A stretch of 5,676 nt of DNA from a virus: the IMG/VR virus record IMGVR_UViG_3300038540_000019, positions 1 to 5,676 of that record; one strand, 5' to 3'. Of this stretch, positions 1 to 5,676 are shown in pieces. Position 1 is the stretch's first letter, and every line of letters begins with the position of its first letter. The notes below the pieces were generated by a model that saw only the letters and a list, made by a program, of their open reading frames with translations, had not been told where the DNA came from and searched no databases. The translations under genes and the position numbers were made by a program.

Positions 1-107
1 TACTTGATAATAAAGTATACATGCGTACCACTTGTGAAAGGGGGGTTTTTCACCCCCCTTTTTACTTATAGTTTAGTCGCTTGTATAGACTAGGCTTCGC
101 CTTCTTT
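1..107. repeat. Terminal redundancy, copy 1 (identical to 5570-5676); wrap-around of a circular sequence
   Basis: Compared base by base: tacttgataataaagtatac...taggcttcgccttcttt occurs at both window ends. Confidence 0.97.
37..61 (-). terminator. G6/C6 hairpin (HP1) at the end of the VP1 gene block; putative bidirectional intrinsic terminator and/or ssDNA structural element
   Basis: AAAGGGGGGT (37-46) pairs with ACCCCCCTTT (52-61): 10 bp, loop TTTTC. On the coding strand it reads AAAAAGGGGGGU-GAAAA-ACCCCCCUUUCAC, 29 nt downstream of the ORF104 stop. The T-run on the plus-strand side (59-63) is the longer one. Confidence 0.55.
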
Positions 108-404
108 TCCCATCGGTTCTGATGGTTTTTCTGCTTCTTCAAGTCTTTTGTAGTACTCCTGTCTTTTCGCTTGTTTTGCGCTGCTTACTTTGTCCATCGC
201 TTCAACTGCTACTTCGAATCTGTCAGTTCTTACATCATATGCGGGTTGCACTCCTTCTTTTCTTTCCACATATATTAACGGTGCCCCATCTGTTATTGGT
301 TCTTTGAATGTTACAATTCTTTCAACTTTTATTTCGATAGATTCCCCTTGATATGAGGCATTTGTCTTAATCAGACCTTTGTCTCTAATGTTTATTTTTT
401 TCAT
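90..404 (-). CDS. Hypothetical 104-aa protein translationally coupled to VP1; assembly/scaffolding (VP3-like) role is only a positional guess
   Basis: The track ORF 90..431 starts at a GTG (429-431) inside VP1. The first ATG (402-404) lies 1 nt after the VP1 TAA (406-408; TAAgATG), which fits termination-reinitiation. Stop is TAG at 90-92. The C-terminus is charged and acidic (KRLEEAEKPSEPMGKEGEA). I recognise no motif. Confidence 0.7.
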   Translation of the reverse strand: MKKINIRDKGLIKTNASYQGESIEIKVERIVTFKEPITDGAPLIYVERKEGVQPAYDVRTDRFEVAVEAMDKVSSAKQAKRQEYYKRLEEAEKPSEPMGKEGEA

Positions 405-405
405 C

Positions 406-2484
406 TTATAAATTTGGCATAATTTTAGCACTCATTTTCCTTCTTGCATTTACATCCACTCCAATTTGTACCCAAAAGTTTTGTGCTGTTAGGTCAGTTT
501 GAGCGAAAGCGTAATTAAATTGACTTGGGTCAATGTAGGTTGTTAAATCCTTTATTTTCCCTTGTTGAGCATCTGGTTTGTACCGTCTTGCTAATGTCAT
601 GTACATTTCATTTCTTTCGTCTGCGAAATTACCATACAACTTATTAAAGTTTGTCATGTAATTAATCCAAGCTGGCTGTTTTCCTGCGCTTGAATAGATT
701 ATATTATTCGGCTCTAGGTTTTCACTTTTTGTGTCCCAGAATGCCATTTGATCTGTTAATAGGTCTTGGAATCCTATCTCATCTAAGTTAGGTTTGTGAA
801 AGTCGTTGAATGTTTTTAAATTCATTGTCCAATCATTACCCTGATAATAGTCTACTCTTGGGGTGATACTTACAATACCCATAATTATACTAGGTTCGTC
901 TACATGAATTGTCATGCTTCCGCCTTTGTGTTTGTTGGCCATTGTTCCCCTGCCTCCCAACGCTCCCAGCGATTGTTCTCCGCTTCCTGTTGTTGCTGCT
1001 GTTGAACTTACTACCTCTTGAAATATGATTTCTTTGCTTAATCCCCCCATGTACATCGGGGTTTCTGCTTTTCTGTAGCTGTTTGCATCATAAACTGCCT
1101 CTAACCAATCATCATAGCTACCACCACTTACCGCAATTCTATTCAACATGTCATAGACTTTTTTTGATAAGTTTAGCGTGTCTAATGTGAATGAACCATC
1201 GGTTGTGTCAATAGCTGTAATTCCATTAATTCCACTGTCTCCTTCAATCCATTCCGTATTTAACCATGCGTTAAATATATCGCTTTGGTATGTTTTTATC
1301 GCCAATGCTTCCTGACTGTAAAAGCTAGCGCTTTGTCCTGTGCTTCCGTATATGAATGCCTCTTTTAATGGTAAGCAATATGGTTCCCATGTGTTCCATG
1401 CATCAATCATAACTCCATTACTTGCGGCTAGTATTTGTTCCCTCATTCTATCAATGTTATCTAATGGGAATTCCAGTAGATTTATTTGGTCAGCTGCTTC
1501 TGTTAGGCTTATAGGTGCTAGTACATCTGGATCTCCTGCGAATATTGAACCAATATGCATGTTTCCAGTCCATGTGTAGCTAACTTCTGCTTCATACCAA
1601 TAATAATCTGCAACATGTTCAACAAAGTTAAGTGTTTGTTCGTAGTTTGTTCTTACTATTGTGTACTCTCCGGCGGCTTCATCTAGTTTTATCATTTGTA
1701 GCCAGCTTTTTAATGTTCCACCTTCGTTTGTTTTTATAGCTACTTTGATTTTTCCTATACCTAATGCTCCGTCTATACCTGTCAGGTCGCTAGGAATCCA
1801 TTTTGCACTACCTGTGTACCATGTTTGTGGTACAGCTTCATCTGACATTACTATTAAGTAGTCGGCAAAGTTATTTTTGTCTCCGGCTTCTGTATGTATA
1901 CAGTATCCAATTTCTTCCTGTTTGTTTGCATAGTAGTTTTTATAGATATCCCAATATGACAATAGTGCTGTTGCGTTTCTTTCTCCCCATGCGAATTTGA
2001 ATTCTGTGTATTCCTCTGGGCTTGGTAGTCCTCTTAGTCCTAGATAAGCTAATAAGCTACTTTGGTTGAATTGTTGGAATTCTAGTGGTATTGTTTCGAA
2101 TGTTGAGAAGTCGCTCGGTGTTGTTTTTACCTTCATGTATGGCAAGGCTACTGCTTGCATGTTTAAACCTACGTTCAACTTGTTGTTGTGTAGCTGGCTG
2201 TTGTATAATCTCAAAGGGCATTGGAATACATCCAACTGCAATTTAAAGCTAGCGAATAGCGGCCCTAATGTTGGGTGAGTTTTCACATCTGCTCCTAAGT
2301 TAATGTCAAAGGTGTCCCCCGGCAATGCTAGCATGTTCATAAATGGTACAAGTGTACCTGTTGCCATTGTTGATCTCCACACGTAACCAAGATCATGATT
2401 ACTTCTTTCGAATCCGTGTAGGGTTACCCTTTGTTTTTTTCCACTTCCTAGGCGGTCTCCGCCTAATGTTACTGTTTTTGCCAT
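406..2484 (-). CDS. VP1: Major capsid protein VP1 (Microviridae F-type jelly-roll capsid protein), 692 aa
   Basis: Longest ORF; ATG at 2482-2484 preceded by AGGAGG. The N-terminus is HGFERSNHDLG...TGTLVPFMNMLALPGDTFDIN...FKLQLDVFQCPLRLY. This follows the conserved N-terminal pattern of gokushovirus-type VP1 (SFDRS...G.LIP....VLPGDTF....YFFVPLRLLW). Confidence 0.93.
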   Translation of the reverse strand: MAKTVTLGGDRLGSGKKQRVTLHGFERSNHDLGYVWRSTMATGTLVPFMNMLALPGDTFDINLGADVKTHPTLGPLFASFKLQLDVFQCPLRLYNSQLHNNKLNVGLNMQAVALPYMKVKTTPSDFSTFETIPLEFQQFNQSSLLAYLGLRGLPSPEEYTEFKFAWGERNATALLSYWDIYKNYYANKQEEIGYCIHTEAGDKNNFADYLIVMSDEAVPQTWYTGSAKWIPSDLTGIDGALGIGKIKVAIKTNEGGTLKSWLQMIKLDEAAGEYTIVRTNYEQTLNFVEHVADYYWYEAEVSYTWTGNMHIGSIFAGDPDVLAPISLTEAADQINLLEFPLDNIDRMREQILAASNGVMIDAWNTWEPYCLPLKEAFIYGSTGQSASFYSQEALAIKTYQSDIFNAWLNTEWIEGDSGINGITAIDTTDGSFTLDTLNLSKKVYDMLNRIAVSGGSYDDWLEAVYDANSYRKAETPMYMGGLSKEIIFQEVVSSTAATTGSGEQSLGALGGRGTMANKHKGGSMTIHVDEPSIIMGIVSITPRVDYYQGNDWTMNLKTFNDFHKPNLDEIGFQDLLTDQMAFWDTKSENLEPNNIIYSSAGKQPAWINYMTNFNKLYGNFADERNEMYMTLARRYKPDAQQGKIKDLTTYIDPSQFNYAFAQTDLTAQNFWVQIGVDVNARRKMSAKIMPNL

Positions 2485-2747
2485 TAGTTATTTTCCTCCT
2501 TCATTATTTTGTATGTTTCTTCGGCAATTATACCTGCTATTAATGTTATAATATTCCATTTTTCCTGATCAATAATTTTGATCATTTCTTCTAGGCTATT
2601 TGCTGTATATGGTAGCCTGAATTTTCCCCATGTTAAAAATGCTGGTTCTTCATCGTATTTGACTGCTATGAATGGTGTCCCCTCTATTGGTACTCTTTGT
2701 ATTAGTTTACCATCCGAAGCTGAGTTGTTGTTCTTTTGCTTTATCAT
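2484..2747 (-). CDS. Hypothetical protein, 87 aa, immediately upstream of and coupled to VP1
   Basis: ATG at 2745-2747. The TAA stop (2484-2486) overlaps the VP1 ATG by 1 nt (TAATG). The sequence looks globular (GKLIQRVPIEGTPFIAVKYDEEPAFLTWGKFRLPYTANSLEEMIKIIDQEKW). There is no obvious SD, and the start is embedded in the 3' end of the preceding ORF. Confidence 0.6.
   Translation of the reverse strand: MIKQKNNNSASDGKLIQRVPIEGTPFIAVKYDEEPAFLTWGKFRLPYTANSLEEMIKIIDQEKWNIITLIAGIIAEETYKIMKEENN
2495..2500 (-). promoter_or_regulatory. Shine-Dalgarno site for VP1
   Basis: Coding strand reads AAGGAGGaaaataactaATG; AGGAGG lies 10 nt upstream of the VP1 ATG. Confidence 0.75.
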
Positions 2748-2979
2748 TTTTTTCTTTTTTACTGTTGTTTATTATTGTTATTTTACTGTTGTCGCATTCC
2801 GGACTTAATTTTGTTATTTGTCCATCTTTGGAATAGTTGTATTCCTGTTTATCAATTCTGTGTTTGTGTGTTGTGCATTTTGTGCACTCCCATTCGTTTG
2901 GGCTGTAGCCATTCCATCTATGGCGTTTATTTATTTCGTTGCCCTTGCTTATTATTTCACCATCTTCGTTTATTATCAT
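2707..2979 (-). CDS. Hypothetical 90-aa Cys/His-containing protein (possible small zinc-binding module), Lys-rich tail
   Basis: The ATG at 2977-2979 overlaps the stop of the upstream 47-aa ORF (ATGA). It contains RHRW...WECTKCTTHKHR...(about 27 aa)...PEC. The C-terminus is low-complexity (NNSKKEKNDKAKEQQ). Stop is TAA at 2707-2709. Confidence 0.5.
   Translation of the reverse strand: MIINEDGEIISKGNEINKRHRWNGYSPNEWECTKCTTHKHRIDKQEYNYSKDGQITKLSPECDNSKITIINNSKKEKNDKAKEQQLSFGW
2757..2792. repeat. 12-nt direct repeat TTTTACTGTTGT x2 (2757-2768 and 2781-2792), in frame within the 90-aa ORF
   Basis: Read directly from the sequence. The copies are offset by 24 nt, which duplicates the peptide N-S-K in DNSKITIINNSKK. 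Confidence 0.85.
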
Positions 2980-3119
2980 TCACCTAAAATTTCTAAGATT
3001 GCTCTAATTTTTCGTTCGATAATGTGTTCTGCTTCTGCGTTTCGTAGATTTAGTAGTGTCATTAGGACTAGATAGGCTATTTTATAAGCCTTTTTCCATG
3101 ATGTTAGTTTTTTTCTCAT
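2976..3119 (-). CDS. Small ORF, 47 aa (MRKKLTSWKKAYKIAYLVLMTLLNLRNAEAEHIIERKIRAILEILGE), not in the supplied ORF track
   Basis: Hand translation of the minus strand. ATG at 3117-3119 with a strong AGGAGG 5 nt upstream. The TGA stop (2976-2978) overlaps the next ATG (ATGA), so this is the first cistron of the block leading into VP1. Confidence 0.5.
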   Translation of the reverse strand: MRKKLTSWKKAYKIAYLVLMTLLNLRNAEAEHIIERKIRAILEILGE

Positions 3120-3124
3120 ATTTA

Positions 3125-3130
3125 CCTCCT
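3125..3130 (-). promoter_or_regulatory. Shine-Dalgarno site for the 47-aa ORF
   Basis: Coding strand reads GAAAGGAGGtaaatATG. It shares the AAGGAGG core with the VP1 RBS. Confidence 0.7.
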
Positions 3131-3160
3131 TTCTGTTTTTTAGTTTATGCAAATATAATA

Positions 3161-3180
3161 AAAGGGGGTTTCCCCCCTTT
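3161..3180 (-). terminator. G/C hairpin (HP2) with GAAA loop and U-tract on the coding strand; putative intrinsic terminator between the two gene blocks
   Basis: Plus strand: AAAGGGGG-TTTC-CCCCCTTT (8 bp). Coding strand: AAAGGGGG-GAAA-CCCCC followed by UUUUAUUAUAUUU. It lies between the 65-aa ORF region and the RBS of the 47-aa ORF. Confidence 0.6.
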
Positions 3181-3262
3181 ATGTTTTACGACACATTTAA
3201 CATGAATGTTTTACCGTTATCCCATAGTATTAGATAGCCACCTTTCCATTTTATTTCAGTTA

Positions 3263-3460
3263 CTACAGGTTTAACTTGGATTTCTCTAATCTTTTTATGT
3301 CTATAAAGAAACTTGCATATTCGATACTTAATACATCTTGTTTGTAAATTTTGTTTTGTACTTCGAATTTTTGTTCATAAACTTCGAATTTCCATTTACT
3401 AAACATCATACTGGTTTCAACATCTTTCTTTTTCATAATTATATTATTTAAATTAAACAT
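3263..3460 (-). CDS. Hypothetical 65-aa ORF, weak coding evidence; may really extend to 3186 through a -1 frame change
   Basis: ATG at 3458-3460 and TAG at 3263-3265, followed directly by TAA. Very AT-rich, no clear SD, and a possible internal start at 3436. See the finding on the -1 frame continuation. Confidence 0.4.
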   Translation of the reverse strand: MFNLNNIIMKKKDVETSMMFSKWKFEVYEQKFEVQNKIYKQDVLSIEYASFFIDIKRLEKSKLNL

Positions 3461-3674
3461 GCTATATCCATTTGTTATTCAATCGAATAAGATAAAGGGC
3501 GAAGCGAAGCGGAGTTTATATACCCTTTTCGTTTCGAGGGAATAACATAACTTTGCAACGTTTAATTGATAATATATCTGCTCGCATACCACGGCTTAGG
3601 GATTGAAGTGGAAATCCTTTTTGCTTTTGGGCAAAAAGATTGGAGCGTAAAGCCCGACCCGATAGGGGAAGCCC
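3461..3674. other. 214-nt non-coding, G+C-enriched structured spacer downstream of rep (candidate origin, cis element or small RNA)
   Basis: No ATG-initiated ORF with an RBS on either strand. Features seen: tandem pentamers GCGAA-GCGAA-GCGGA (3499-3513) and CCCGA-CCCGA (3653-3662); helices 3500-3508/3528-3536, 3600-3604/3613-3617, 3617-3624/3631-3638 and 3663-3668/3672-3677. Confidence 0.6.
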
Positions 3675-4616
3675 CTAATTTTTATTCTTCTTTAATATAT
3701 TGCGCATACGTTTATAGTGCGCCATTTGCCATGTTTCGCTGTTGTCTCCGAATCCCAGTCTTTTATTTTTTTGTTGTGCTCGTTTTAGTGTTTCTTCGTA
3801 TTGTATTTCATTTTCTTTAATACTTATTTTTTCTCCTAATATGTATCGTTCTTCTTTATCTAGTTTCTCTATCCATAATTTTTCCCGTTCTTCTTCTGTG
3901 TATAATTTATTTCTGTAATATATTGGTAGAGCTAGTTTTAGTCCTGTTCTTGTTCTGTAATATTCTTTTGTATTTTTATCTTTGTATTTATTTATGTTAC
4001 TATCTATTCTTTTTATATAGTTGCTTCCTATTCCTGCGGATGTTAGTATTTTTGCTTTGTATCCTTTATGGTCTGTGTCTATTTTAGTGACGTATTTTAC
4101 TATATAGTTTACCGTTCTTTCGTTTACGTAGTCACCAATATATGTATGTCCATATGTCCATATTTTTTTTATGTCCTCTATTTCATTTGTCCATATTATA
4201 CCGTGTATATGTATTCTTTCTGTGTTGTTGTGTCCTAGTTCTGTTATTAACCAGTGTTTTACTGATTTTTTATATTTTTTTCTCCATCGTTCTAGGAATC
4301 TCCTTGTTCCTAGTTTTGCAATTTCATTTTCTATTAGTTCTTCTGGTGTTATTGTTTTTATAACTTCTTTTTTTAATTTTTGGAGTTCTCCCTCTTCGAA
4401 TGTGAGTGTTACGAACTTTCCATTTCTGTTATTTCTTATTTCTTCATTTAGTCTAACTTGCCATTCTCTGGATTTTTGTTTTCTGCATTCTATGCAGTTA
4501 CCGCAACCTATTGGCACTTTTGTTACTCTTATATCATTAATGGGGGGTATTATCCCCCCATTTTTTTTGGTTGCTTTATACTTTGGATTATCTATTAATT
4601 TTGGATATAAGCACAT
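3675..4616 (-). CDS. VP4: Replication initiation protein VP4 (HUH rolling-circle endonuclease, phiX174 gene A superfamily), 313 aa
   Basis: N-terminal MCLYP...CGNCIECRKQKSREWQVRLNEE is typical of microvirus VP4. RCR motif 1 is FVTLTF, motif 2 is HIHGIIW (H-u-H), and motif 3 is NYIVKYVTK (YxxKYxxK, compare phiX A YVAKYVNK). The ATG at 4614-4616 overlaps the VP2 TAA by 1 nt (TAATG). Confidence 0.93.
   Translation of the reverse strand: MCLYPKLIDNPKYKATKKNGGIIPPINDIRVTKVPIGCGNCIECRKQKSREWQVRLNEEIRNNRNGKFVTLTFEEGELQKLKKEVIKTITPEELIENEIAKLGTRRFLERWRKKYKKSVKHWLITELGHNNTERIHIHGIIWTNEIEDIKKIWTYGHTYIGDYVNERTVNYIVKYVTKIDTDHKGYKAKILTSAGIGSNYIKRIDSNINKYKDKNTKEYYRTRTGLKLALPIYYRNKLYTEEEREKLWIEKLDKEERYILGEKISIKENEIQYEETLKRAQQKNKRLGFGDNSETWQMAHYKRMRNILKKNKN
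4539..4562. other. G6/C6 hairpin (HP3) embedded in the 5' part of the rep coding sequence
   Basis: AATGGGGGG (4539-4547) pairs with CCCCCCATT (4554-4562): 9 bp, loop TATTAT. T8 follows on the plus strand. It encodes Rep residues G-G-I-I-P-P as GGG GGG ATA ATA CCC CCC. Confidence 0.7.
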
Positions 4617-5524
4617 TATTTCATAGCTTTTGCTGCTGTTTCTACTACTGTTTTACCTAATTCCGCCCATGTCTTCCAATTTATAAACTCTCCTGTATTC
4701 CATTCTGATGCAAGTTTTTGAGCTGCTGCTTGTATCCCTGCTGCGTTTGATTTGTTTGTTTCATTTAGTAGTTCTTGCCAGTATCCCATTGCTTTGTTAT
4801 TGTTTAATAGTGCGCTTGCTTCTGCGTTGTTAGCTTGCGCCATTGCTTGTGTTACTGCTGCAACCTTTGATTGTGTGAATAGTGCATTAGGTGCTATCAT
4901 ATGAACGCCATAACGCTCATTTTTGTCACCTTGTCCTTGTTCCTTGTCTCCTTGTTGGTTGTCTTCGAATTCTTTTCTTACATTTTCAATCCATGTACTT
5001 TTACCCCTTTGGAATGTTTCCTCGATTACGTTATCCCTGTTTTTATTTGTGGTTTCTGCTTCTGCGTTTAGCTTGTTAGCTGTCGCTTGATTTACTGCTA
5101 TTTCAGATGCTGCTTTCTGCATTTGTAATCCCATTCCTGCCGATTGGATATTTGCCATTTTTCTGCTCGTTTCATCGCTTGCGTTGCCTCCTCCAACGGA
5201 AGCGCTTCCGCTTCCTGTGCTGCCTCCTGCTCCGCCTTTTGCGTACATTAATGCGGGATTTAATCCTGCTGCTTTGTAGTGTGCTATTTGCGCTTCTGCA
5301 TTTGTTTTGTTCCACATATTTAACTGTTCCTTGTAGCTGTCTTTCATCAGACCTAAGTTAGCTTTGCTTTGCATATCTGTTAATGCTTGCTGTTGCTCTA
5401 ATTGGTCTTTTTTTAGTTTGTCGTTGTATCCTGTTAGTTCTCCTAATCCGTAGCCTATTTGTTCAGCTGCTGAACCTGCTACGCTCATACCTGTGCTTAA
5501 TGCTAATGTTCCGAGTGCGCTCAT
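4616..5524 (-). CDS. VP2: Minor capsid / DNA pilot protein VP2, 302 aa
   Basis: The sequence contains ...WNKTNAEAQIAHYKAAGLNPALMY followed by a Gly/Ser-rich linker (GGAGGSTGSGSASVGGG). The AGLNP-x-L motif and the Q/A/N-rich coiled regions are characteristic of gokushovirus-type VP2. ATG at 5522-5524 after an A/T-rich leader with no SD. Confidence 0.85.
   Translation of the reverse strand: MSALGTLALSTGMSVAGSAAEQIGYGLGELTGYNDKLKKDQLEQQQALTDMQSKANLGLMKDSYKEQLNMWNKTNAEAQIAHYKAAGLNPALMYAKGGAGGSTGSGSASVGGGNASDETSRKMANIQSAGMGLQMQKAASEIAVNQATANKLNAEAETTNKNRDNVIEETFQRGKSTWIENVRKEFEDNQQGDKEQGQGDKNERYGVHMIAPNALFTQSKVAAVTQAMAQANNAEASALLNNNKAMGYWQELLNETNKSNAAGIQAAAQKLASEWNTGEFINWKTWAELGKTVVETAAKAMK
4929..4955. 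repeat. Imperfect hexamer microsatellite CCTTGT x4 inside VP2
   Basis: Copies at 4929-4934, 4935-4940, 4942-4947 and 4950-4955. On the coding strand this is ACAAGG x4, encoding QQGDKEQGQGDK. Confidence 0.85.
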
Positions 5525-5559
5525 TTTATTTATTTTTTCGTGTCTTTTTTTAAAAAAGC

Positions 5560-5638
5560 TTTTACTTATTACTTGATAATAAAGTATACATGCGTACCAC
5601 TTGTGAAAGGGGGGTTTTTCACCCCCCTTTTTACTTAT
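5560..5638. repeat. 10-nt direct repeats TTTTACTTAT (5560-5569 and 5629-5638 = 60-69) bracketing a 59-nt block that contains the CTTGATA motif and hairpin HP1
   Basis: Exact repeat read from the sequence. A further TACTTGAT half-copy follows the first repeat directly (5570-5577 = 1-8). Confidence 0.85.
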
Positions 5639-5676
5639 AGTTTAGTCGCTTGTATAGACTAGGCTTCGCCTTCTTT
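5570..5676. repeat. Terminal redundancy, copy 2 (identical to 1-107)
   Basis: Same 107-nt string as 1-107. It includes a second copy of the hairpin (5606-5630) and of the 3' end of the 104-aa ORF (5659-5676). Confidence 0.97.

Follow-up and report, generated by a model that had tools for sequence, protein, structure and literature searches.

The largest stretch free of open reading frames (ORFs) in an uncultured microvirus genome holds two unrelated elements and not one new element. The genome was analyzed as IMG/VR record IMGVR_UViG_3300038540_000019, whose positions 1 to 5,676, the whole stretch of 5,676 nucleotides (nt), are called the window here. Module B (positions 3589 to 3678, plus strand) is the Flavo-1 structured-RNA element (Rfam RF01705) in intact form, and its neighbor, module A, appears to be a cis element of the virus itself. 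An earlier note, made from the letters alone, had described positions 3461 to 3674 as a single undescribed noncoding element of 214 nt. Its view of the region as noncoding and made of two modules stands, as does its statement that this is the largest gene-free stretch (the other gaps between minus-strand ORFs measure 110 nt and ~135 nt). The idea of one element has to be given up, and so does that of an undescribed one: module B is a new copy of a known RNA family, one that is functionally orphan, at a site where it was not expected. As a microvirus genome, the window is complete and circular (~5,569 nt, with a terminal overlap of 107 nt), and all its substantial ORFs lie on the minus strand. 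The gene strand, here the minus strand, is the packaged strand in Microviridae.

The features that carry this finding are as follows.

3461 to 3674, strand not assigned: ORF-free stretch, a composite of module A, a spacer and module B (ORF list, G+C content).
3589 to 3663, plus strand: full-length match to the Rfam Flavo-1 RNA RF01705 (model positions 1 to 76 of 76; 57.8 bits, gathering score 42, E = 5.1e-11).
3593 to 3673, plus strand: complete Flavo-1 three-way junction (covariation across 12 copies; 84.6 bits with an extended model).
3593 to 3597 with 3669 to 3673, plus strand: closing helix P1, 5 bp, GGCTT/AAGCC (covariation).
3599 to 3655, plus strand: long arm P2, with purine-rich internal loops (covariation).
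3658 to 3667, plus strand: hairpin P3, made of CCC (3658 to 3660), loop GATA and GGG (3665 to 3667) (covariation).
3674 to 3678, plus strand: single-stranded 3' tail CCTAA (family consensus CC[A/T]AA), conserved and holding the complement of the rep stop codon.
3675 to 3677, minus strand: TAG stop codon of rep, the complement of CTA in the tail, starting 1 nt after the 3' half of P1 (P1') (ORF list; the same register is found in L258).

Flavo-1 was the sole significant match when the whole window was scanned against Rfam, a check that the earlier note had itself suggested, and no second copy was found in the window. The copy has the residue of every invariant column in an alignment of 12 copies, including GAUUG.AG, GGAAAUCC and GAUUG.AGCG.AAAGC, and it shares with the Rfam family the long hairpin and the conserved strings GGGAUUGAAG.GGAAAUCC ... 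GAUUG.AGCG.AAAGCCC. It differs from the family in its setting, a 5.6-kb single-stranded DNA (ssDNA) microvirus in which it is antisense to all genes and abuts a stop codon. Comparative genomics brought Flavo-1 to light in 2010, when it was entered among the probable noncoding RNAs of Bacteroidetes (Weinberg et al. 2010, PMC2864571). Flavobacterium psychrophilum has 128 copies, whose function is not known; they lie sense or antisense to transcripts, some in 5' untranslated regions (UTRs) and many outside transcribed regions (PMC9723704). No mention of Flavo-1 in connection with phages was found in the literature searched.

Similarity among Flavo-1 copies continues past the 3' end of the Rfam model, and the present comparison adds to that 76-nt model three parts that it lacks: the closing helix P1, the hairpin P3 and the CC[A/T]AA tail. 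All 25 model pairs in P1, P2 and P3 form as standard pairs in the window copy. Among the copies, P1 occurs in seven complementary forms (GCGTT/AACGC, GGCTT/AAGCC, GCGTG/CACGC, GCATT/AATGC, GAGTT/AACTC, GCGCC/GGCGC and GCAAT/ATTGC) and P3 as CCC/GGG, CCT/AGG, TGGC/GCCA, GTCG/CGAC or CC/GG. In the alignment of 12 copies, which were lined up by hand to fit the junction, with gaps coded N and several copies mutually related, standard pairs fill 97.2% of 286 cells and two-sided changes are seen at 16 of the 25 pairs. None of 500 shuffles matched any of the pairing measures, and sliding the 3' partners brought pairing to 52% or less. The dot-bracket structure published for an F. psychrophilum 5' UTR overlapping Flavo-1 has the same long arm, small hairpin and closing helix (PMC9723704, supplement), and is an independent sign of the three-way junction.

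All strings and coordinates given in the earlier note are present in the sequence. For module B these are GGATT/AATCC (3600 to 3604 with 3613 to 3617), the CTTTTTGC/GCAAAAAG hairpin, the tandem CCCGA-CCCGA and the hairpin TAGGGG-AAG-CCCCTA (3663 to 3677), which does hold the stop codon of rep (ORF 3675 to 4616, minus strand). The note had also proposed that a long-range helix closes a multi-helix domain of ~80 nt. The domain is indeed closed, in the register GGCTT/AAGCC (3593 to 3597 with 3669 to 3673) and not by TTAGGG/CCCTAA, which is not conserved in the copies with a CCAAA tail and whose place is taken by P1. The TAGGGG/CCCCTA hairpin is the thermodynamic optimum, with a minimum free energy of -28.6 kcal/mol for the fold that contains it versus -23.0 kcal/mol for the junction. 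It competes with P3 and P1 and is not conserved in the other copies.

What lies far beyond chance is the homology to Rfam Flavo-1, backed by covariation across copies, and not folding energy. The folding of both strands as RNA and as ssDNA, recommended in the earlier note, gave z scores no better than about -1.5 (plus-strand RNA, -0.96; minus-strand RNA, -0.23; minus-strand ssDNA, -1.36 and -1.28; module A, -1.51). Folding energies are thus within ~1 to 1.5 standard deviations of those of shuffled sequences on either strand, as RNA or DNA, and thermodynamics alone would therefore not single out positions 3461 to 3674. The enrichment in G+C that the note had reported is real (41.6% versus 36.3% for the genome) but modest, since 14% of 214-nt windows are at least as G+C rich; the excess stems from positions 3593 to 3678 (48.8%, in the top 3.4% of 86-nt windows).

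The structured strand is the plus strand, opposite to all virus genes. This follows from the conserved internal loops, which are purine rich on the plus strand (GAA/GNA and GGA/GNA, with P3 loops GAA, GATA or GTA), from the five G-U cells and zero A-C cells of the alignment, and from the stability of the junction, which is 6.6 kcal/mol greater on the plus strand than on the complement (-16.4 kcal/mol as RNA). In the standard microvirus cycle the strand opposite the genes is never single-stranded DNA; therefore the element, if it acts through the junction structure, must act as RNA. Other identities were tried for the conserved positions. A dif/Xer-type attachment site, brought to mind by the 11-6-11 look of the central hairpin, was rejected on the grounds that the element is multicopy, its stems covary and its loop length varies. 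Resemblances to CRISPR repeats, to hammerhead and other ribozymes, to tRNA-like CCA ends, to integron attC sites and to the plasmid ssoA CS-6 motif were considered as well, and none of them fits.

The element was acquired horizontally by this microvirus lineage, because it is absent from related loci. The comparison covered 90 related microvirus loci whose Rep proteins are 53 to 71% identical to that of the window. None of them gave a Flavo-1 match with nhmmer, and a covariance model of the full junction gave a best E value of 1.8 among them (the window scored 84.6 bits). Because these 90 loci lack it, module B cannot be an origin, iteron or packaging signal of the whole clade. An Rfam scan of the relatives L001, L002, L013 and L014 detected no Flavo-1, the GenBank phage collection had no match to the whole genome or to the region, and exact-pattern scans of IMG/VR found no Flavo-1 copy in any microvirus-sized contig. 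The nearest relative, at 71% Rep identity, is too distant for the intergenic DNA to be aligned and for insertion boundaries to be set.

Further copies are found on phage contigs (L004, L005, L007, L012, L239, L251, L258 and L267), on the metagenome-assembled contig L215 (two copies) and on plasmids of Paraclostridium bifermentans (L216, two copies) and Leptospira biflexa (L217), all passing the Rfam threshold. Flavo-1 was also detected in Leptospira long-read data, and chromosomes of Bacteroidota carry it in abundance. The copy most similar to that of the window is in L215, the one contig returned by a census of host copies that consisted of one bacterial-genome scan with a very specific sequence pattern. 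L215 (JASGCW010000125.1) is filed under a metagenome-assembled genome of Limnohabitans (Betaproteobacteria); it is probably a mis-binned Saprospiraceae contig, as it codes for a member of a ≥90% identity cluster that also includes a protein of a Saprospiraceae (Bacteroidota) assembly. The host pointers are mixed: the closest copy is in a probable Saprospiraceae contig, yet copies also occur on the Leptospira and Paraclostridium plasmids. Both L215 and L216 carry inverted Flavo-1 pairs with tails outward. In L215 (6875 to 6968, minus, and 7948 to 8000, plus) an HNH endonuclease gene lies between the copies, the left one of which truncates a dcm cytosine methylase gene at Pfam position 165 of 324; in L216 (1163 to 1257, minus, and 3995 to 4088, plus) HNH endonuclease and amidase genes lie between them. 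A specific HNH endonuclease partner of Flavo-1 was considered and rejected, as the HNH proteins of these unrelated replicons share the catalytic motif only.

In the window, Flavo-1 is arranged tail-to-tail with rep, whose stop codon lies inside the conserved 3' tail. The same layout is found beside a gene for a terminase-like protein of ~550 amino acids. In all eight lineages of this gene that were examined, with identity down to 31%, the element follows it on the opposite strand, and in six of them (L239, L258, L267, L272, L273 and L275) the stop codon of the gene falls 1 to 14 nt from P1'. In L258 that stop is in the same register as in the window, using the CTA nucleotides of the tail. The comparison also revealed mini versions of Flavo-1 (L272, L273 and L275) that retain P1, the base of P2, P3 and the tail but have a short hairpin in place of the upper half of P2; these mark the junction as the conserved core and argue for selection. 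Elsewhere, a convergent ORF in L005 ends 11 nt from P1', and the exceptions are the copies in L004, L216, L217 and L251, which adjoin no gene end. The window and the terminase-like lineage are the only clearly independent cases of the antisense layout. The loci of this lineage (L007, L239, L258, L267 and L272 to L276) belong to Chitinophagaceae (Ferruginibacter) phages or prophages, with a full or mini junction on the opposite strand after the terminase-like gene and then 170 to 830 nt without ORFs. The ~550-amino-acid protein had no match in sequence and profile searches of Pfam, PHROGs or PDB; one UniRef label reads "Terminase-like family protein," and its members are found in Ferruginibacter and Chitinophagaceae assemblies.

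Three plus-strand features of the window, none of them strong, are compatible with a transcript of the element.

3548 to 3555, plus strand: TAACTTTG, an exact match to the Bacteroidota -7 consensus TAnnTTTG, 38 nt upstream of P1 (pattern match only).
3573 to 3580, plus strand: TATATCTG, resembling the -7 consensus except at one position, 13 nt upstream of P1 (pattern match).
3679 to 3686, plus strand: T-run TTTTTATT directly after the tail, a possible 3' end of a plus-strand transcript (pattern scan).

No good -33 TTG was seen at the right distance from the box at 3548 to 3555. The pattern scan scores the hairpin at 3663 to 3677 together with the T-run as terminator-like; as said above, this hairpin lacks conservation in the other copies, and it conflicts with the covarying P3 and P1. 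Expression of the family can be followed in F. psychrophilum, from a small sample of rows read by hand from Table S3. The sense probes of copies 0010 and 0040, which are antisense to expressed segments, rise from ~6 to 10-13 log2 in agar-grown cells, and both copies belong to the same expression cluster as tRNA-Cys (PMC9723704). A SigA start site has been mapped 23 nt upstream of copy 0055, and copy 0025 is cotranscribed with nrdAB (PMC9723704). The agar-linked, tRNA-like signals fit a small stable RNA; they could also reflect cross-hybridization or effects of RNA extraction.

We tentatively favor, as plausible rather than probable, the reading that module B is a Flavo-1-class small RNA gene on the antisense strand, convergent with rep and mimicking the Flavo-1 RNAs of the host, which keeps two candidates from the earlier note's list, a host-derived fragment and a plus-strand regulatory RNA. 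A small RNA of ~95 to 125 nt would be read from the strand opposite every virus gene, starting at one of the two Bacteroidota-type -7 boxes (3548 to 3555 or 3573 to 3580) and ending at the T-run at 3679 to 3686. During infection the phage would thereby add its own copy of an RNA already made by the host from many loci, and the likely effect would be to engage a host factor that recognizes the conserved junction and loops. Both the transcription of this copy and its benefit to the phage are inferred. A wider claim, that this is a working noncoding RNA gene on the antisense strand of a member of the Microviridae, a phage-borne module of unrelated Bacteroidota phages placed tail-to-tail with a key gene and exploiting a host factor, seems to us unlikely.

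Several points weigh against such a small RNA. The engagement of a host factor is conjecture, Flavo-1 being a functionally orphan family, and expression of the copy in the window is predicted from sequence features. The two promoter boxes were recognized by pattern and have poor -33 elements, chance would place an exact TAnnTTTG within 60 nt in ~7% of cases, -7-like boxes lie 12 to 20 nt upstream in only 4 of 16 copies, and a T-run follows in only two (the window and L217). We know of no antisense transcription unit in Microviridae. The covariation alignment was fitted to the structure by hand, the loci of the terminase-like lineage are not mutually independent, and a freshly inserted passenger copy would look equally intact. 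The origin role that we propose below for module A comes from conservation in four relatives and from analogy. In F. psychrophilum, array probes may cross-hybridize among the 128 copies, which are both sense and antisense to transcripts and in many cases untranscribed (PMC9723704).

The main rival is a passenger repeat, a real possibility if a somewhat doubtful one, in which a spreading copy of REP or MITE type landed in the sole sizeable noncoding region, at the end of rep, where it supplied or abutted the stop codon and has no role for the phage. It is in line with the presence of the element in the window virus alone among 90 relatives, with the 128 copies in either orientation, many untranscribed, of one host genome, with the occurrence of ~80% identical copies across phyla on plasmids and phages, with the truncation of the dcm methylase gene in L215 (profile position 165 of 324) and with the inverted, tails-out pairs that flank gene cassettes in L215 and L216. 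However, the flanks of 12 copies show no target-site duplication, direct repeat or terminal inverted repeats, and the complementary ends covary like a helix that derives from GCGTT/AACGC. No link to a transposase turned up, although no search aimed at RAYT or transposases was made. Purifying selection on structure is evident from the compensatory changes in P1 and P3, and the syntenic retention through deep divergence in the terminase-like lineage, where even the mini versions keep the junction core, likewise indicates selection. Comparison with REP/REPIN, ERIC and Correia-type repeats is similarly divided: Flavo-1 resembles them in being short, hairpin forming, intergenic, present at ~100 copies per host genome in either orientation and found on mobile elements, but it differs in its strand-specific conserved loops, its compensatory changes, a three-way junction in place of a simple palindrome and the lack of target duplications or terminal repeats in the 12 copies. 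The position next to stop codons could instead reflect a cis-acting 3'-end element of the convergent gene (rep or the terminase-like gene), such as a roadblock, a bidirectional terminator, a stabilizer of the mRNA 3' end or a post-stop structure. We consider this quite improbable, even with a convergent stop 1 to 14 nt from P1' in the window, L005 and six of the eight terminase-like lineages, the same tail CTA used as stop codon in the window and L258, and an antisense position of the element in each phage locus with all genes in one direction. Read as its complement, the element has no U-run behind it, is 6.6 kcal/mol less stable and would have pyrimidine in place of purine loops; the copies in L004, L216, L217 and L251 are away from gene ends, and host copies also sit in 5' UTRs.

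A role in complementary-strand synthesis, which the earlier note had listed, appears very improbable. According to it, the folded virion strand at 3590 to 3680 would recruit host priming, as in phiX174, G4 or plasmid single-strand origins. Like the phiX174 primosome assembly site, the G4 oriC, the M13 minus origin and plasmid sso sequences, the region is an intergenic, hairpin-rich segment of an ssDNA genome; the complement still forms the junction (-16.4 kcal/mol as RNA), and the ssDNA fold keeps the main hairpin. Flavo-1 differs from those origins in that its conserved strand is the complement of the virion strand, never single stranded in the standard microvirus cycle (the packaged strand being assumed, from Microviridae, to be the gene strand), and in that it is not conserved among relatives, being absent from 90 that must also convert ssDNA to double-stranded DNA. 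The ssDNA fold is unremarkable (z = -1.36), and the family is chromosomal and multicopy. Least credible of all is that the stretch is coding, either by readthrough of the rep TAG into a 48-codon extension or through a plus-strand ORF of 84 amino acids (3566 to 3820). The frame after the rep TAG does stay open for 48 codons (3531 to 3677, minus strand), to a TAA inside module A; it likewise runs uninterrupted through the Flavo-1 complement in L215 (a dcm fusion ending in ...LSGRAFRSNLF...KGFPLQSL) and through the first half in L258. Yet the length of the apical loop varies by non-multiples of 3, L012 has an insertion of ~60 nt, L267 has tandem stops, the covariation follows base pairing and not codons, and the plus-strand peptide has no homologue among 5.8 billion proteins. 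That ORF crosses Flavo-1 into the antisense of rep and is very likely spurious; host copies sought through the peptide across Flavo-1 gave no matches. Among known phage systems, the small RNA gene proposed here can be set beside lambda OOP RNA, which is encoded by a gene convergent with the 3' end of cII. Both are short structured transcript units tail-to-tail with an essential phage gene (expression being predicted in our case). They differ in that the predicted overlap of Flavo-1 with rep is a few nucleotides, making antisense pairing unlikely as the mechanism.

Module A occupies the other part of the ORF-free stretch, and its features read as follows.

3472 to 3547, minus strand: module A, an extended imperfect hairpin of the virion strand with stems TGTTATTC/GAATAACA, TCGAA/TTCGA and GAAAAGGG/CCCTTT.TC (ssDNA folds).
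3514 to 3527, minus strand: apex motif AAGGGTATATAAAC; the same 14-mer is found in L014 and L015 and GGTATTTAAAAC in L013, all downstream of rep.
3499 to 3511, minus strand: CGCTTCGCTTCGC, the GCGAA pentamers of the earlier note read on the gene strand; CGCTTCGC(T) stands just after the rep stop in L013 and L220, and L014 has CTTCGCGCC.

The earlier note's pentamers GCGAA/GCGAA/GCGGA (3499 to 3513), the 9-bp stem CGAAGCGAA/TTCGTTTCG (3500 to 3508 with 3528 to 3536, one G-T) and the alternative AAAGGG/CCCTTT helix (3494 to 3499 with 3523 to 3528) are all found there. On the virion strand, the apex reads AAGGGTATATAAAC...CGCTTCGCTTCGC. In L014 and L015 (Rep 66% identical) the identical 14-mer AAGGGTATATAAAC lies 43 nt after the rep stop, atop a long hairpin, which in L014 matches module A in architecture but not in stem sequence (z = -3.18). 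L013 (Rep 71%) and L220 (Rep 67%) have GGTATTTAAAACGCTTCGCT and ACGCTTCGCT, respectively, right behind the rep stop. In the window the motif stands 153 nt after the rep stop, with Flavo-1 and a 45-nt spacer in between. The motifs were not seen in 80 more distant relatives, which have other sequences downstream of rep, often resembling Bacteroidota promoters, and the 119 matches to the 14-mer AAGGGTATATAAAC in IMG/VR are all by chance, none being a relative. The recurrence of AAGGGTATATAAAC, CGCTTCGC and the hairpin downstream of rep in the closest relatives suggests that module A is the virus's own cis element, as the earlier note had proposed.

By analogy, the ground on which the earlier note too had likened it to rolling-circle origins, module A is most likely a candidate Rep recognition or nick region, that is, a putative plus-strand origin. 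It shares with the rolling-circle plus-strand origins of phiX174 gene A, CRESS-DNA viruses and rolling-circle plasmids an A/T-rich motif at the apex of a virion-strand hairpin, the proximity to rep and short direct repeats beside the motif, but its sequence is identical to that of no mapped origin. A further difference is that the origin of phiX174 lies inside gene A and needs no hairpin. A separate G+C-rich element, TTTACGC(G)CC-TCAGTC-GG(C)GC-ATCGCT.TCGCGG, is common to L013 (5593 to 5640) and L220 (2225 to 2265), two contigs of the same sequencing project, downstream of rep. Its hairpin shows a compensatory change (GCCC/GGGC versus GCGCC/GGCGC) and has no counterpart in the window.

The remaining genes of the genome form the following set, all of them on the minus strand.

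406 to 2484, minus strand: capsid protein VP1 (ORF list).
3263 to 3460, minus strand: ORF of 65 amino acids that bounds the ORF-free stretch on the side away from rep (ORF list).
3675 to 4616, minus strand: rep, a VP4-like replication initiator of 313 amino acids (PF23343 recorded on homologues), convergent with Flavo-1.
4616 to 5524, minus strand: VP2-like protein (ORF list).

Several further small ORFs are present on the minus strand. The 65-amino-acid ORF had no match in Pfam, and a scan of the window for tRNA and tmRNA genes found none. Rep belongs to a large group of uncultured microviruses, its nearest homologue being 71% identical. Three hairpins with stems of G5-6/C5-6 are found at 37 to 61, 3158 to 3182 and 4541 to 4568. 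The one at 3158 to 3182 resembles a gene-strand terminator, and after it comes, at 3157 to 3150 of the minus strand, the exact -7 box TATATTTG; those at 37 to 61 and 4541 to 4568 have T-runs on the plus strand, antisense to the genes, and the hairpin at 4541 to 4560 falls within the rep codons for GGIIPP. Strong Shine-Dalgarno sequences (AAGGAGG) precede VP1 (2485 to 2505) and a small ORF starting near 3119 (3119 to 3135), both on the minus strand. The remaining virus genes are preceded by A-rich leaders that lack one, and the pattern as a whole is a mixed pointer to the host.

For this uncultured microvirus, Flavo-1 is a lead to its host, pointing to Bacteroidota, and module A is a concrete replication-origin candidate in a clade without a mapped origin. 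The window shows that a structured element of host type can enter the genome even of an ssDNA phage of 5.6 kb, and where such cargo is tolerated there. The family itself gains a three-way junction with a defined core, mini variants, a spread on mobile elements across phyla and a recurrent antisense, stop-abutting position in phages. If the RNA is expressed, this small and synthesizable genome would be a convenient chassis for studying Flavo-1 function, and a working antisense RNA gene would be without precedent in Microviridae, both as a noncoding RNA gene and as an antisense transcription unit, and would offer a route to the function of an RNA family that has been an orphan since its description in 2010.

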